Virus record (IMG/VR): IMGVR_UViG_2648501802_000003 | Direction: 5' to 3' (one strand) | DNA length: 47,423 nt | Origin: a virus | Taxonomy: Duplodnaviria > Heunggongvirae > Uroviricota > Caudoviricetes | Part shown: positions 24,787-31,849 of the stretch, piece after piece | Layout: every line of letters begins with the position of its first letter | Position numbering within the stretch: the first letter of the stretch is position 1 | Program-made: the position numbers and the translations under genes | The notes under the pieces: model-generated | Seen by the model: the letters and a program-made list of their open reading frames with translations, nothing else | The model's database searches: none | Told to the model about the DNA's origin: nothing

Positions 24787-26889
<2,103 letters not shown>

Positions 26890-26915
<26 letters not shown>

Positions 26916-27435
26916 TCAGCAACCCCGGTATCAGTTCATCCAGCGCGGCTGCTTTGTTCATGGCTTTGATGATATCCCGTTTCAGGAAATCAACATGTCG
27001 GTTTTCCAGTTCCGGAAAACGCCGCTGCACCGACAGGGGGAGCCCGTCGAGAATACTGGCAATTTCACCTGCGATCCGCGACAACACGAAAGTACAGAAT
27101 GCGGTTTCCACCACTTCAGCGGAGTCTCTGGCATTCTTCAGTTCCTGTGCGTCGGCCTGCGCACGCGTAAGTCGATGGCGTTCGTACTCAATAGTTCCTG
27201 GCTGGAGATCTGCCTCGCTGGCCTGCCGCAGTTCTTCAACCTCCCGGCGCAGCTTTTCGTTCTCAATTTCAGCATCCCTTTCGGCATACCATTTTATGAC
27301 GGCGGCAGAGTCATAAAGCACCTCATTACCCTTGCCACCGCCTCGCAGAACGGGCATTCCCTGTTCCTGCCAGTTCTGAATGGTACGGATACTCGCACCG
27401 AAAATGTCAGCCAGCTGCTTTTTGTTGACTTCCAT
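26890..27435 (-). CDS. nu1: Terminase small subunit Nu1
   Basis: 181-aa ORF MEVNKKQLADIFGASIRTIQNWQEQGMPVLRGGGKGNEVLYDSAAVIKWYAERDAEIENEKLRREVEEL... as lambda Nu1. Confidence 0.9.
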
Positions 27436-27612: not shown

Positions 27613-27624
27613 AGGTCGCCGCCC
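27613..27624 (-). other. cosN cohesive-end site (12-nt GGGCGGCGACCT on the packaging strand); cosB/cosQ flank it across roughly 27440-27720
   Basis: Plus strand AGGTCGCCGCCC at 27613-27624; surrounding sequence matches my recollection of the lambda cos region upstream of Nu1. Confidence 0.75.
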
Positions 27625-27823
27625 CGTAACCTGTCGGATCGCCGGAAAGGACCCGCAAAATGATAATGATTATCATCTACATATCACAACGTGCATCTAC
27701 GCCATCAAACCACGTCAAATAATCAATTATGACGCAGGTATCGTATTAATTGATCTGCATCAACTTAACGTAAAAACAACTTCAGACAATACAAATCAGT
27801 GACACTGAATACAGGGCAACCTC

Positions 27824-28057
27824 ATGTCAACGAAGAACAGAACCCGCAGAACAACAACCCGCAACATCCGCTTTCCTAACCCAATGATTGAACAAATTAA
27901 CATCGCTCTTGATCAAAAAGGGTCTGGGAATTTCTCAGCCTGGGTCATTGAAGCCTGCCGCCGAAGACTGTGCTCAGAAAAAAGAGTTTCGCCTGAAGCA
28001 AACAAAGAAAAGAGTGACATTACTGAATTGCTCAGAAAGCAGGTCAGACCAGATTGA
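27824..28057 (+). CDS. Small RHH-like DNA-binding protein (YlcI/DUF3950-like)
   Basis: 77-aa ORF MSTKNRTRRTTTRNIRFPNPMIEQINIALDQKGSGNFSAWVIEACRRRL...; pattern typical of ribbon-helix-helix proteins; same position as the right-end ORF of lambda. Confidence 0.6.
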   Translation: MSTKNRTRRTTTRNIRFPNPMIEQINIALDQKGSGNFSAWVIEACRRRLCSEKRVSPEANKEKSDITELLRKQVRPD

Positions 28058-28114
28058 AGCAATTTAGATAATCGTGCAGACTAGGTACCTTCATATCACA
28101 TGGAAGGTACTACA

Positions 28115-28525
28115 ATGGCTCAGGTTGCCATTTTTAAACAAATATTCGATAAAGTGCGAAATAATTTAAACTATCACTGGTTTTATTCTGAACTAAAACG
28201 TCACAATGTCTCACATTACATTTACTATTTAGCCACAGAGAATATTCATCTTGTTCTTGAAAACGATAATACGGTTTTAATAAAAGGACAGAGTAAGGTT
28301 GTAAATGTAAGATTTTCAAAAAATAAATGCCTTATAGAAGCCACCTTAAAAGGATTCAAATCAGGAGAGTTATCATTTTACGAATACAGGAAAAATCTTG
28401 CTACAGCAGGGGTTTTCAGATGGATTACAAATATCCACGAAAACAAAAGGTATTACTATACCTTTGATAATTCATTACTCTTTACTGAGAACATTCAGAA
28501 CACTACACAAATATTTCCGCACTAA
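28115..28525 (+). CDS. ybcV: YbcV-like protein (DUF1398 family), unknown function
   Basis: Track ORF 28100..28525; likely start at ATG 28115 ([17 protein letters not shown]...) with RBS GGAAGG; resembles recalled K-12 YbcV; AT-rich codon usage. Confidence 0.6.
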
Positions 28526-28570
28526 ATCATAACGTCCGGTTTCTTCCGTGCCAGAACCGGACTCGCTGGC

Positions 28571-28735
28571 ATGATGAAATATGTGTACCCGGTAACCCCG
28601 GTGTGCATCGTTTTTGATTATTCCCGCACACTCGCGCAGAAGGAGTTCCCCGTCGGGCTACGGTCTCTGTTAATACGGGAATACGGCGACGATACAGCGC
28701 ATGATGTGTCAGGCTTGAATACCTTTATCCTTTAA
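28571..28735 (+). CDS. Small hypothetical protein (YbcW-like), 54 aa
   Basis: Hand-translated ORF MMKYVYPVTPVCIVFDYSRTLAQKEFPVGLRSLLIREYGDDTAHDVSGLNTFIL, below the track length cutoff; coordinates approximate. Confidence 0.35.
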   Translation: MMKYVYPVTPVCIVFDYSRTLAQKEFPVGLRSLLIREYGDDTAHDVSGLNTFIL

Positions 28736-28781
28736 AAGGGATATCAGTTAAGTTATCCCGTGTAGGGTATAAGCCATTATC

Positions 28782-28808
28782 AAAGCCACTCTGTAGGAAG
28801 TGGCTTTT
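28782..28808 (+). terminator. Rho-independent terminator candidate downstream of the ybcV/ybcW-like genes
   Basis: Perfect 9-bp inverted repeat AAAGCCACT / AGTGGCTTT with 8-nt loop, followed by TTTT on the plus strand. Confidence 0.5.
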
Positions 28809-29016
28809 GTAATGGCAATAAAAAGCCCCGCGAATGCGAGGCTAAATCCTGGTATTTGTAATGACTGGCTCTTATCTCAACGCAGCCCCTTACCGCGCGC
28901 AAAATGCTCAATATCAAGCATCAGCAATGAGATGTTTAATCTGGATTCACTCCAGAAGTGAGCACCACCCTGTCTACAGAGCCAGATGTGAAGGATGATG
29001 AGTAAAATTATCGCTA

Positions 29017-29484
29017 TCATCGAAGGCATTGCGTCCTGATGTATTCCTGAAGCGTTCTCAGTGCTGTTTGGTCGCGGATAATTCCGTCCCGGATACCGAG
29101 AACGTTTCGTCCAGCAACTGGAGAGAGTTCGACGGTGGCATCATTGCCCATGCCGGAGGCGCTGGAGGTTTCGGCTGAGGATGGCACAGGGCATTTTCCT
29201 TTGACGAGCACCCGACCACCATTATCAAGCTTGCGCCGAAGAGCATCATTTTCAGCTTTCGCATCAGCTAACTCCTTCGTGTATTTATCATCGAGTGCAT
29301 CAGCATCACGCTGGCGCTGCTGCATGTCAGTAATGGTGGCGTTCGCCTTCTCCAGTTCACTGGCCTTGTTATCGCGCTGTTCTTTGTAGGCGATTGCATT
29401 ATCACGGTAATGATTAACAGCCCATGACAGGCAGACGATGATGCAGATAACCAGAGCGGAGATAATCGCGGTTACTCTGCTCAT
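29017..29484 (-). CDS. Rz: Spanin inner-membrane subunit Rz (i-spanin)
   Basis: Track ORF 29017..29496; [39 protein letters not shown]... with N-terminal TM and coiled coil; follows endolysin. Confidence 0.8.
29058..29264 (-). CDS. Rz1: Spanin outer-membrane lipoprotein Rz1 (o-spanin), embedded in the +1 frame of Rz
   Basis: ORF inside Rz in another frame; lipobox-like VVGC and proline-rich stretch [11 protein letters not shown] typical of Rz1. Confidence 0.6.
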
Positions 29485-29978
29485 TGTTTCCCCCACAAAC
29501 AGACTTCACGCTCAATCTCACGGCGAGTCATCAGTCCTTTCCATTGATTACCGCCAGCGTATGTCCAGCGCCGTAGCTGATCACATGCGCCTTTAATATC
29601 ACCCTGGTTTATTTTGCGAAGAAGCGTCGATGTTCTGAAATTGCCAGCACCCACGTTGTAGACGAACGAGTAAAGAGCGCCGCGCGTTGTTTCCGGTATA
29701 TCGACTTTGATGTACCGGTTAATTTGTCTGGCGACAGTGGCAAGGTCTTTATTCAGGAGGGCTTTGCACTCTGCTTCGGTATACGTTTTACCGGGAATGA
29801 TGTCTTTTCCTGTATGCCCGTAACATACAGTCCATACACCAACTATGTCTTTGTAAGGATTATGTCTCACACCTTCCAGACCATCGTTACCACTTGGGCC
29901 AGTGATTAACACAGATGCTATAGCAATAGCCCCGCCACCAATAGCAGCAGCAACAGCTTTTCGTAATGATGGAGGCAT
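29481..29978 (-). CDS. R: SAR endolysin R (phage-21 type lysozyme with N-terminal signal-anchor-release domain)
   Basis: 165-aa [40 protein letters not shown]... matches recalled R21 / K-12 RrrD. Confidence 0.9.
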
Positions 29979-30193
29979 TATTCACCTCTCGCAGCCTTGC
30001 GCTTATCTTCTTTAATCTTGAAATAAAGGTTTGTCAGGTACGTCAGCAGGCCAAATACCAGGCTACCCAGCACACCTATTGCTGCCCACTGTGAGGGCGT
30101 GACTTTATCGAGCAGCTGTAAAAACCAGTACCCGGCACTACCTGCTGAGGTGCCATAGGCGACACCCGTTGTTAACTTATCCATGGATTTCAT
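29978..30193 (-). CDS. S: Pinholin S (phage-21 type), dual-start motif
   Basis: 71-aa [29 protein letters not shown]...[35 protein letters not shown]; Met1 and Met4 give the antiholin/holin pair. Confidence 0.85.
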
Positions 30194-30766: not shown

Positions 30767-31849
30767 ATGAAAAAATTAACAGTGGCAATTTCTGCTGTAG
30801 CTGCATCAGTACTGATGGCGATGTCTGCTCAGGCAGCTGAAATTTATAATAAAGACAGTAACAAGCTGGATCTGTACGGGAAAGTTAATGCTAAGCACTA
30901 CTTCTCCTCTAATGATGCAGATGATGGTGATACTACTTATGCCCGTCTTGGCTTCAAAGGTGAAACCCAAATCAACGATCAACTGACTGGTTTCGGTCAG
31001 TGGGAATATGAATTCAAAGGCAACCGCGCTGAATCTCAAGGTTCCTCCAAAGATAAAACCCGTCTTGCCTTCGCTGGCCTGAAATTCGGTGACTACGGCT
31101 CCATCGATTACGGCCGTAACTACGGTGTAGCATACGACATCGGTGCGTGGACTGACGTTCTGCCAGAATTCGGTGGTGATACCTGGACCCAAACAGATGT
31201 GTTCATGACTGGTCGCACTACTGGTGTTGCAACTTATCGTAACAGCGACTTCTTTGGTCTGGTCGATGGCCTGAACTTTGCTGCTCAGTATCAGGGTAAA
31301 AATGACCGCACTGACGTAACTGAAGCCAATGGTGATGGTTTCGGTTTCTCCACTACTTATGAGTATGAAGGATTCGGCGTGGGTGCAACCTATGCTAAAT
31401 CAGATCGCACTGACGGTCAGGTCGCCTATGGTAAGAGCAAATTCAATGCCTCCGGCAAAAATGCGGAAGTATGGGCTGCAGGCCTGAAATATGATGCGAA
31501 CAATATCTATCTGGCTACCACATATTCTGAAACTCAGAATATGACCGTTTTTGGTAATAACCATATTGCAAACAAAGCACAAAACTTTGAAGCAGTAGCA
31601 CAATATCAGTTTGACTTCGGTCTGCGCCCATCTGTTGCTTACCTTCAGTCAAAAGGTAAAGACCTTGGTGTTCATGGTGACCGAGACTTAGTCAAGTATG
31701 TCGATGTCGGTGCTACTTACTACTTTAATAAAAACATGTCCACTTTTGTTGATTACAAAATCAACTTAATTGACGATAGTAAGTTTACCAAAACAGCTGG
31801 TATTGATACTGATGACATCGTTGCTGTAGGTCTGGTTTACCAGTTCTAA
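30767..31849 (+). CDS. nmpC: Outer membrane porin NmpC/Lc-type (OmpC family), uninterrupted
   Basis: 360-aa ORF with signal peptide [23 protein letters not shown], porin-like sequence ending ...VGLVYQF; located between Q and S on the opposite strand as in DLP12 and phage PA-2. Confidence 0.85.

Follow-up and report, generated by a model that had tools for sequence, protein, structure and literature searches.

The ynfO–ydfO genes between the lysis cassette and cos of an Escherichia coli lambdoid prophage: ordinary accessory cargo, not a toxin-antitoxin pair

Do the plus-strand open reading frames that lie between the minus-strand packaging and lysis genes of a lambdoid prophage form one dedicated module, or are they separate pieces of cargo? 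A first-pass annotation of the DNA studied here described three such ORFs, whose coordinates were borne out when the sequence was read again, and likened their layout to that of toxin-antitoxin or exclusion modules. The window, that is the whole stretch of 47,423 nucleotides analysed, is an E. coli lambdoid prophage, and across the region concerned (27824–28812) it is 100% identical to strain ST2747. The PGAP annotation of that identical genome has exactly two plus-strand genes here, coding for a DUF3950 and a DUF1398 protein. Both genes are genuine, are of known families, and are gained and lost independently among related prophages. On balance, the slot between the lysis cassette and cos is probably an accessory ("moron") site of lambdoid phages, occupied by Qin-type cargo of two separable genes, with the 54-aa ORF being non-coding.

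The features of the slot and its neighbors are collected in Table 1. The packaging side is marked by cosN, which reads as the reverse complement of the lambda sequence GGGCGGCGACCT, and around it the sequence and the right end of lambda/HK630 are near-identical. As had been noticed in the first reading, bor is missing: tblastn over the whole window found none, and ybcW is also absent in the window. The 50-aa ORF that overlaps the start of Rz, which PGAP labels as a hypothetical protein, is a neighbor situated outside the plus-strand genes.

Table 1. Features in and around the slot between Rz and cos (positions are those of the window).
Feature	Position	Strand	Basis or remark
Nu1	26890–27435	minus	cos-side neighbor of the slot
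cosN 12-nt cohesive end, AGGTCGCCGCCC	27613–27624		by inspection of the sequence
Imperfect inverted repeat, ATCAATTATGACG / CGTATTAATTGAT	27722–27754		candidate operator only
ynfO-like gene, 77-aa DUF3950 protein (YlcI/YnfO family)	27824–28057	plus	Pfam, NCBIfam, PHROG 949, PGAP
PdhR-box-like palindrome, AGCAGGTCAGACCAGAT	28037–28053		motif search; 9 of 14 to consensus
Candidate -10 hexamer, GATAAT	28067–28072	plus	hexamer scan; putative independent ydfO promoter
ydfO/ybcV-like gene, 136-aa DUF1398 protein	28115–28525	plus	Pfam, PDB 2HH8, PGAP coordinates
Conserved non-coding block	28534–28860		Rz-proximal end of the slot; many lambdoid prophages
54-aa ORF, probably not a gene	28571–28735	plus	frame open; no family
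Perfect 9-bp hairpin, AAAGCCACT/AGTGGCTTT, 8-nt loop	28782–28808		RNA fold
Terminator-like hairpin, AGCCTCGC/GCGGGGCT, then UUUUUAUU	28824–28843	minus	terminator scan
50-aa ORF overlapping the Rz start	28877–29029	minus (late strand)	PHROG 11822, E = 1.8e-36
Rz	29017–29496	minus	lysis-side neighbor of the slot

Profile searches for DUF3950 and DUF1398, the check that the first-pass annotation had named, returned both families. The product of the first gene matched Pfam DUF3950 (PF13132; E = 5e-21, 74.6 bits against a cutoff of 25), the NCBIfam model YlcI_YnfO_N (NF041551; 32.1 bits against a cutoff of 30) and its PHROG family (E = 6e-33), and it is 96% identical to YnfO of K-12 and 70% to YlcI. 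The product of the second covered all of Pfam DUF1398 (PF07166; E = 6.5e-43, profile positions 1–119 of 119) and matched the YdfO structure PDB 2HH8 (E = 1e-69 over residues 1–140), in agreement with the YbcV-like assignment proposed earlier; identities were 75% to YdfO, 77% to YbcV and 42% to YcgX. PGAP places the start of this gene behind a GAAGG Shine-Dalgarno sequence, and an alternative start at 28100 would give 141 aa. The gene has a GC content of 31%, against 50–56% in the flanks and about 50% in the window; the AT-richness that had been claimed for both this gene and the 54-aa ORF therefore holds for the former and not for the latter, which has 49% GC.

Read from its sequence, the DUF1398 protein has neither a signal peptide nor a hydrophobic segment and appears soluble (GRAVY -0.41). 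Its AlphaFold model reached a pLDDT of 50.6 with an alignment of 24 sequences, in which all homologues are at least 65% identical. Lambda can do without its own homologue in lytic growth, as lambdap78 was found to be non-essential by CRISPRi (PMC10695390), and lambda vir swaps the slot region with Qin yet is viable (bioRxiv 10.64898/2026.09.04.749371). The labels "head protein" in PHROG and "putative envelope protein" in GenBank were discarded, as no support for them was found, the protein having no signal peptide and its lambda homologue being non-essential.

The ynfO–ydfO pair is already catalogued in E. coli lambda-like prophages, including Qin of K-12, and in a variant form in lambda. In Qin, ynfO and ydfO (b4533 and b1549) agree with the window in order and spacing, in the length of both genes (77 aa and 136 aa) and in how they are oriented relative to nohA/cos, and the PdhR-like box differs by one base. 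Qin differs in what follows ydfO: gnsB, ynfN and cspI stand before the lysis genes, whereas in the window the conserved block and the 50-aa ORF lead to Rz. The slot and the orientation are also those of lambda (an unannotated ylcI-like ORF, lambdap79, lambdap78 and bor) and of DLP12 (ylcI-ybcW-ybcV-bor), and the cos-proximal 400 bp and the region downstream from p78 are near-identical between lambda and the window. Lambda differs by the opposed p79/ybcW in between, a 64-aa YlcI with another C terminus, and bor after the block, all of which are absent in the window. It has been reported that p79 is the trigger of the Vulcan NADase and that escapers drop p79 by recombination with Qin (bioRxiv 10.64898/2026.09.04.749371), which results in a layout as in the window. 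The identity with the Qin pair and the homologous genes in lambda itself had been missed in the first reading.

Several traits of a moron were observed, as the cargo of the Rz–cos slot is variable among related prophages and the base composition of the DUF1398 gene is deviant. With regard to a promoter and a terminator of its own, a terminator-like hairpin is seen, and the plus-strand promoters are only weak candidates below threshold. The bor/iss moron of lambda and of ColV-type plasmids occupies the same slot and strand, and its upstream sequence is homologous to the region of the 54-aa ORF, but the bor/iss coding sequence is absent in the window.

The first gene had been described as ribbon-helix-helix (RHH)-like with a basic N terminus. 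The latter is evident, since the first 20 residues contain six K/R and no D/E, and the pI is 10.6. As for the former, the predicted structure and the register of the motifs suggest that the DUF3950 protein probably has an Arc/Mnt-like RHH DNA-binding domain at residues ~13–52, followed by a variable C-terminal tail. In the AF2 model (monomer, pLDDT 65) an extended segment is followed by two helices, and NLRWP of Arc and NFRMP of Mnt fall in register with NIRFP of the DUF3950 protein, with R16, P18 and V41 invariant; the conserved R16, N36 and S38 are compatible with DNA contacts. Like Arc and Mnt of phage P22, the protein is small and has the N-x-R-x-P strand motif, then two helices with a G/S-x-N/S turn. 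In P22, a temperate phage, the arc/mnt immI region is surrounded by late DNA but encoded on the other strand from the late genes, and the DUF3950 gene is likewise on the anti-late strand inside the late region. It differs from Arc/Mnt in having no significant sequence or structure score, and no antirepressor gene adjacent to it in the window.

In hhalign, DUF3950 aligned to Arc and Mnt with probabilities of 2.3% and 0.5%, respectively, in the register expected. No RHH family of Pfam was found at E ≤ 1, so that significant sequence similarity to RHH proteins was not seen, and a sequence search of the PDB gave no match. The closest neighbors in a fold search with the model included many RHH antitoxins (ParD, RelB, MazE, TacA and KacA), with scores below significance, and in PHROG there was a weak match to a HicB-like family. 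These antitoxins, the commonest structural neighbors of the model, have an RHH-like N-terminal domain and an extended variable tail, as does, by its model, the DUF3950 protein, which in turn has no conserved downstream toxin partner. Hence the topology and the Arc/Mnt register make the RHH call plausible, while every score is below statistical significance.

An exhaustive homologue search returned only 105 DUF3950 representatives, and two word-indexed searches gave only close E. coli relatives together with many error-ridden lambda control reads. The neighbors of DUF3950 genes include AlpA (15), integrase (12) and primase (7), and at ~28 of 38 loci the first ORF upstream runs in the other direction; in the satellite of E. 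coli 90-3040, for example, the DUF3950 gene is divergent from an Icd-primase operon. YlcI/YnfO genes have also been reported in cf-PICIs (PMC13612085). In PICI/P4-like satellites the homologues are divergent from the replication operon, where a maintenance repressor is usually encoded. The DUF3950 protein may be a small, dimeric Arc/Mnt-type RHH repressor or autoregulator in the quiescent prophage, its gene in lambdoid phages being placed divergent from the packaging genes. A candidate operator is the imperfect inverted repeat 70–100 bp upstream of the gene (13-nt arms, 85% complementarity), which is kept in lambda/HK630. A match to a "transcriptional repressor" of Pasteurella phage Pmp7 was on the strand opposite to that gene (E = 2e-4) and was dismissed as chance.

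No sigma-70 promoter for either gene was found above threshold on the plus strand by the consensus scan, and the hexamer scan gave weak candidates. One of them, the putative -10 hexamer in front of the ydfO-like gene, is below the threshold of the consensus scan and has a poor -35 that overlaps the PdhR-like box, so a pyruvate-sensing host regulator would set the expression of this gene if the promoter is used. The box is homologous to K-12 sites upstream of ydfO and ybcV and is kept in lambda/HK630. PdhR SELEX peaks have been found at both of these K-12 sites, and the ybcV mRNA is 10-fold lower in a pdhR mutant (PMC7660256). In addition, ydfO is stress-inducible (PMC4077768), and it also responds to DicC. 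The published data thus favor independent control of ybcV and ydfO in K-12. A hairpin at 28085–28110 that could sequester the Shine-Dalgarno sequence was rejected, as it is not kept in lambda or Kati. The AT-rich DUF1398 gene would then be a separate, horizontally acquired piece of cargo with its own weak, activator-dependent promoter. Because there is no terminator between them, the ynfO-like and ydfO-like genes may be co-transcribed without any mutual need. Late antiterminated transcription from the opposite strand would silence both in lytic growth.

The third member of the supposed three-gene module, the 54-aa ORF, did not withstand comparison. It has no family in the four libraries searched (Pfam, NCBIfam, PHROG and PADLOC) and is absent from the PGAP annotation of the identical genome. 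Its frame is shifted in lambda and carries a stop codon in an O157 copy, the in-frame ATG is missing in about half of 78 haplotypes, and the N- and C-terminal ends are replaced or missing in about half. The ratio of synonymous to non-synonymous changes (12:20) does not set this frame apart from the five others. Neither an intact frame with a start, nor purifying selection, nor a family match was thus seen. That the ORF is nevertheless a genuine small-protein gene, and the module one of three genes, is distinctly unlikely, although most haplotypes keep the frame open through the conserved core, one genome has a 58-aa homologue in its PGAP annotation, and a 53-aa ORF is annotated at this position in phage Kati. 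In other elements this stretch is what precedes bor/iss, and the ORF is, judged from sequence comparison, most likely non-coding and a remnant of the bor upstream sequence.

The 54-aa ORF is included in a larger conserved block, which also contains a 5' hairpin (28534–28562), the counterpart of the bor/iss promoter region, and both terminator-like hairpins. The block is present in 4772 of 5426 E. coli genomes, and also upstream of iss on plasmids. It aligns to the lambda p78–bor intergenic region, with a promoter annotated in the HK630 record; the homology to lambda stops at about 28701, and beyond this point there is a different conserved 3' part with the two hairpins. The block is kept with or without ynfO, ydfO or bor, and in most E. 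coli lambdoid prophages it stands at the Rz end of the slot even when all of these are missing. Here bor would have been lost, and the block that elsewhere is the bor/iss promoter block retained. The 3' 230 bp are near-invariant over 16 haplotypes, which leaves a covariation test without power. Rfam returned nothing at the gathering threshold over the whole window, and the sub-threshold matches to mir-458 and STnc560 reflect the hairpins only.

The perfect hairpin folds with -20.2 kcal/mol on the plus strand (z = -5.2; 0 of 200 shuffles fold as well) and -20.7 kcal/mol on the minus strand (z = -6.1), and is conserved except for its loop. The consensus terminator scan did not flag it; with the three terminal A-U pairs included, the tail reads UUUUGUAAU. 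It is plausible that this hairpin is a bidirectional intrinsic terminator that closes plus-strand transcription. The first-pass annotation had assigned the module its own terminator: the perfect 9-bp stem is real, but it is also kept in prophages without either gene and is therefore not specifically theirs. The second hairpin (-14.1 kcal/mol, z = -3.6) is convergent with the first, and the back-to-back hairpins would insulate convergent plus- and minus-strand transcription from each other. It is conceivable, if distinctly unlikely, that the block is a functional non-coding element or that the DUF3950 RHH protein is a repressor in satellites and a regulator by cos. The block could give rise to a lysogen-expressed RNA of roughly 100 nt, running from the bor-type promoter to the perfect hairpin; alternatively, it could act in cis on the late transcript. 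The DUF3950 protein, for its part, could keep satellites repressed in the quiescent state and, in lambdoid phages, serve beside cos as a roadblock or regulator.

The accessory-cargo reading has to be weighed against three others, in which the two genes work together or the first one works in packaging. In a type II toxin-antitoxin or abortive-infection pair, the tail of the RHH antitoxin would neutralize a DUF1398 toxin. This is suggested by an RHH gene followed on the same strand by a small gene, 42–57 bp downstream and with no terminator between, by the many RHH antitoxins among the structural neighbors of the model, and by the C-terminal tail, since the YnfO type, which adjoins DUF1398, is unlike the YlcI and Stx-phage types. 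We consider it highly improbable, as the genes assort independently in phages, prophages, satellites and the chromosome, and a toxin-antitoxin or two-part module is not supported. DUF3950 was found in 155 phage records and DUF1398 in 43, with DUF3950 standing without DUF1398 in 112 of the 155; in 62 sampled prophage loci, 13 had both genes and 18 had DUF3950 only (18 of 31 DUF3950-bearing loci); and DUF1398 was within 6 kb at none of 39 divergent Enterobacterales DUF3950 loci. Conversely, YcgX is a DUF1398 protein standing alone on the K-12 chromosome. In an Stx phage the DUF3950 gene is beside HNH-TerS with no DUF1398, and in lambda and DLP12 the two genes are split by an oppositely oriented one. 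Two apparent DUF3950–DUF1398 "fusions" (P0133 and P0134) are a gene-calling artefact, in which a TGA stop is read through as tryptophan, and imply no functional link. A conserved adjacent, co-transcribed pair, as in type II systems, was thus not seen. Neither protein had a match to a known family of toxins, the search covering Pfam, NCBIfam and PADLOC for the DUF1398 protein, and the PADLOC-DB 2.0 defence models gave only a noise-level match (Csx23; E = 0.02, 12.9 bits). Moreover, YdfO was overproduced alone for its NMR structure (the 149-residue tagged chain of PDB 2HH8), which would argue against strong toxicity, and the lambdap78 knock-down had no phenotype. The ynfO-like and ydfO-like genes are not an obligate pair. 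The close spacing with no terminator between them does leave room for a functional link, and a regulator-effector operon, in which YnfO controls ydfO for lysogenic conversion, superinfection exclusion or an undescribed defence and YdfO targets either the host or an incoming phage, is unlikely rather than far-fetched. The anti-late-strand slot holds bor in lambda, the cargo is AT-rich, ydfO responds to stress and DicC, and p79 of lambda is sensed by a defence system, which implies that the slot takes part in phage-host conflict. The closely spaced co-directional genes are also kept in 80 of 80 near-identical IMG/VR loci, but these are 99–100% identical and hence essentially one lineage. There is, again, no defence-family match and no joint inheritance, and no phenotype of ybcV, ydfO or ycgX in K-12 was found in the literature searched. 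The sole phenotype claimed, oxidative-stress resistance upon over-expression of YdfO (PMC4077768), is a mis-citation, as the source cited there concerns YfdO of CPS-53.

The remaining possibility, that DUF3950 is a DNA-binding factor for cos or packaging (for example in terminase access or packaging specificity) and not a transcription regulator, is very unlikely. The gene adjoins the packaging genes in two kinds of phages whose terminase systems are unrelated: in lambda-type phages cosN is 200 bp away, and in HK97-type Stx phages the HNH gene is 42 bp away. Satellites that hijack packaging also have homologues, and in some ORFs a DUF3950 domain is fused to the DNA-binding N-terminal part of a small terminase subunit. 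To PGAP, however, these fusion ORFs are pseudogene fragments, and many homologues have int/alpA/primase or chromosomal cyd genes as neighbors and are not close to any packaging genes. The gene is transcribed against the late operon and would therefore be poorly expressed during packaging, and for the packaging of lambda DNA in vitro, terminase, IHF and proheads suffice.

The ynfO–ydfO genes are, then, ordinary accessory cargo and not a toxin-antitoxin pair. Their discovery value is small, since both families are catalogued, most E. coli genomes have them, as do K-12 and lambda, and one structure has been solved. What is gained are corrections, in that there is no three-gene module and no toxin-antitoxin pair and the 54-aa ORF should not be annotated, as well as a clearer map of the Rz–cos slot, at which cargo is exchanged by recombination. 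Some minor value is left in the cheap hypothesis of an RHH regulator beside cos, common to lambdoid phages and PICI/P4-like satellites; if true, it would add an unrecognised regulator to lambda, where the ORF is unannotated.

The window is an E. coli lambdoid prophage with its late genes on the minus strand, and the 1.55 kb around the locus are 100% identical to strain ST2747 and matched in 4908 of the 5426 complete E. coli genomes. On the plus strand, from cos to Rz, are the three ORFs that the first-pass annotation had listed as a module. Two of them were upheld as genes and had been placed in the right families. The 77-aa product of ORF1 matches Pfam DUF3950 (E = 5e-21), NCBIfam YlcI_YnfO_N, and PHROG 949, and is 96% identical to K-12 YnfO. 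ORF2 covers the whole DUF1398 profile (E = 6.5e-43) and matches the NMR structure of YdfO (PDB 2HH8; E = 1e-69), its product sharing 75%, 77%, and 42% identity with YdfO, YbcV, and YcgX, respectively. PGAP starts ORF2 behind a GAAGG Shine-Dalgarno sequence (136 aa), and the 141-aa form (start 28100) corresponds to the construct of the YdfO structure. ORF2 has a GC content of 31%, compared with 50% in the window as a whole.

Features of the Rz–cos interval and its surroundings (window coordinates)
Feature	Coordinates	Strand	Remark
Terminase A	24990–26915	−	
Nu1	26890–27435	−	
Lambda cohesive-end sequence (cos)	27613–27624		read in sequence
ORF1, ynfO-like (DUF3950)	27824–28057	+	
Palindrome AGCAGGTCAGACCAGAT	28037–28053		
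Best ydfO candidate −10, GATAAT	28067–28072	+	
ORF2, ydfO/ybcV-like (DUF1398)	28115–28525	+	PGAP start
Conserved block	~28534–28860		
54-aa ORF	28571–28735	+	
First hairpin	28782–28808		9-bp stem
Second terminator-like hairpin	28843–28824	−	terminator scan and fold
50-aa ORF overlapping Rz start	28877–29029	−	PGAP-annotated; PHROG 11822 match
Rz	29017–29496	−	
Lysozyme	29481–29978	−	
Holin	29978–30193	−	
OmpC/NmpC-like porin gene	30767–31849	+	between Q antiterminator region and holin gene

The locus is the already known Qin-type ynfO–ydfO cargo of the lambdoid Rz–cos moron slot. In the K-12 prophage Qin, nohA, ynfO, and ydfO follow one another in exactly the order and spacing of the window, while the variant of DLP12 and phage lambda reads nohD/cos–ylcI–ybcW (opposite strand)–ybcV–bor–Rz, ybcW and ybcV being lambdap79 and lambdap78 in lambda. 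In an alignment with HK630, the window is near-identical over the first ~400 bp, counted from cos and taking in the N-terminal 50 codons of the DUF3950 gene; lambda then has a stretch of ~560 bp containing p79, and homology restarts at AGGTCAGACCAGATTGAA, a short way ahead of the DUF1398 gene, and reaches ~28701. Neither bor nor p79 was found by tblastn in the whole window. Lambda vir is reported to escape the Vulcan NADase defence when lambdap79 is deleted via recombination with Qin (bioRxiv 10.64898/2026.09.04.749371), a deletion that gives the layout seen here. The ylcI-like DUF3950 ORF of lambda (J02459, 48139–48303, complement) lies 200 bp from cos; the reference record carries no annotation at the match, and the CRISPRi essentiality table, which lists 67 of the 73 annotated lambda genes, has no entry corresponding to this ORF.

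Other cargo was also observed. The porin gene, positioned as in DLP12, is further opposite-strand cargo of this prophage, and the 50-aa ORF was found in only 20 of 62 related prophage loci. In three other E. coli prophages, the late strand of the slot carries Rha-type or KilA-N/ORF11CD3 antirepressor-like genes that are convergent with the DUF3950 gene; they recall the Mnt/Arc–Ant region of P22, although the orientation differs.

A toxin–antitoxin or exclusion module, as had been proposed, finds no support, since the two genes are not obligately paired, as the gene-neighbourhood evidence says, and neither product matched PADLOC models or toxin families. DUF1398 occurs in 43 of 50,697 phage records, all lambda-like, and DUF3950 in 155, Stx phages among them; in Stx2a phage WGPS8, the DUF3950 gene is 42 bp from the HNH–TerS–TerL packaging module, divergent and without DUF1398. 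Sampling via the conserved block further downstream gave 62 IMG/VR prophage loci, of which 13 carry both genes, 18 DUF3950 only, and 24 neither gene nor lambda-type Nu1. A scan of one genome per species recovered 39 divergent DUF3950 homologues (36–56% identity) across Enterobacterales, none with a DUF1398 relative within 6 kb, and the K-12 DUF1398 gene ycgX has no DUF3950 neighbour. Lambda plating is unaffected by lambdap78 knock-down (PMC10695390). Apparent DUF3950–DUF1398 fusions (P0133 and P0134; 761 member sequences) were rejected as a gene-calling artefact of genetic code 4, in which the ynfO TGA stop is read as tryptophan.

The commonest neighbours of the divergent DUF3950 genes were AlpA (15), integrase (12), and primase domains (7), a combination characteristic of P4-like/PICI satellites, in agreement with the YlcI/YnfO genes reported in Enterobacter cf-PICIs (PMC13612085). 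In about 28 of 38 of these loci, the closest ORF upstream runs on the other strand. In the E. coli 90-3040 satellite, the DUF3950 gene is divergent from the Icd–primase operon, where a maintenance repressor usually sits. This PICI-like element (NZ_CP027459.1, 3712785–3721883; int, HTH, YlcI/YnfO, Icd-like, DUF4222, primase, TerS, and capsid) is inserted in an HK97-type lambdoid prophage, whose large-terminase gene it interrupts, leaving two pseudogene fragments; a 120-aa ORF there, two pseudogene pieces according to PGAP, combines a DUF3950 domain with the initial ~50 residues of a Terminase_2 small subunit. Five homologues in Rouxiella and Pantoea lie in chromosomal contexts far from phage genes, immediately following genes for cytochrome bd oxidase subunits or cydDC-like ABC transporters (neighbours Cyt_bd_oxida_II, ABC_tran, and DUF2474). 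Contigs of ~3.5 kb in dozens of "genomes" of unrelated taxa, such as Streptomyces, Cohnella, Flavobacterium, Staphylococcus, and others (L019–L050, L071, and L086; proteins P0020–P0120) are 93% identical in the DUF3950 part to the lambda right end. They look like sequencing-control DNA contamination and make the host range of both families seem wider than it is, and error-laden reads have generated many spurious protein clusters.

That the ORF1 product is a ribbon-helix-helix (RHH) protein is plausible and, in our judgment, likely. Residues 1–20 include six K/R and no acidic residue. An AF2 monomer model of modest confidence (16-sequence alignment; pLDDT 65, core 70–79) has residues 14–18 extended and helices at 19–32 and 37–54. 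Foldseek against PDB gave nothing below E = 2, yet the matches listed are RHH proteins: StnY, ParD2, Arc, MazE9, KacA, MatP, and TCP domains. With very low probability, hhalign set NIRFP of ORF1 on NLRWP of Arc and NFRMP of Mnt, and MAFFT kept Arc and Mnt in register across the whole domain, with R16, P18, and V41 invariant. No Pfam RHH family was matched, and by score the product falls outside the RHH families.

The 54-aa ORF is probably not a gene: it matched no family in Pfam, NCBIfam, PHROG, or PADLOC, is not annotated by PGAP in the identical ST2747 genome, and, with a GC content of 49%, is not AT-rich as had been stated. Its DNA is homologous to the lambda p78–bor intergenic region, where a promoter upstream of bor is annotated in HK630, and to the sequence that precedes iss on plasmids. 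The frame is broken by indels in lambda and stopped early in an O157 copy; about half of 78 haplotypes have no in-frame ATG ahead of the conserved core, and C-termini differ among haplotypes. Distinct variants (12 synonymous vs. 20 non-synonymous) make this frame the same as or worse than the other five.

The ORF falls inside a block found at the Rz end of the slot with or without ynfO, ydfO, and bor. Of 5426 E. coli genomes, 4772 contain this non-coding block, which always adjoins the lysis cassette at its Rz end and is not followed by bor in 48 of the 62 sampled loci. It comprises a 5′ hairpin with one compensatory change (GTCCGGTT/AACCGGAC vs. GTCCTGT/ACAGGAC), the bor/iss-promoter counterpart, and two terminal hairpins; an sRNA, a promoter remnant, and a recombination joint are candidates for it. 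The first terminal hairpin, noted in the first-pass annotation, was confirmed: its stem has 9 perfect pairs (−20.2 kcal/mol, z −5.2), and the minus strand folds just as well. Its U-tract is no more than fair, and the consensus terminator scan missed it. The two terminal hairpins look like convergent terminators, and both belong to the block rather than to the ynfO-like and ydfO-like genes. A sub-threshold Rfam match over them (28754–28945, minus strand) to the Salmonella Hfq-binding sRNA STnc560 (19.9 bits vs. gathering 55) probably reflects only the tandem-hairpin architecture.

No plus-strand sigma-70 promoter was detected at the scan threshold, and a separate hexamer scan gave weak candidates only, the best for ydfO having a poor −35 that overlaps AGCAGGTCAGACCAGAT. 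This palindrome is one base off its Qin counterpart and similar to that of DLP12; PdhR bound both of these counterparts in genomic SELEX, and ybcV mRNA was down 10-fold in a pdhR mutant (PMC7660256). Ionic liquid strongly induces ydfO (PMC4077768), and DicC over-expression alters it. A published claim that over-expressed YdfO confers protection from oxidative stress (PMC4077768) was set aside: its source (PMC3105296) covers YfdK, YfdO, and YfdS of prophage CPS-53, never ydfO, and the name appears to have been mixed up with YfdO.

Taken as a whole, the reading towards which we lean is that the DUF3950 gene would encode an Arc/Mnt-like repressor and the DUF1398 gene would be an independent, host-regulated, AT-rich accessory gene, both presumably silent in lytic growth, while the region of the 54-aa ORF would be a non-coding remnant of bor-upstream DNA.
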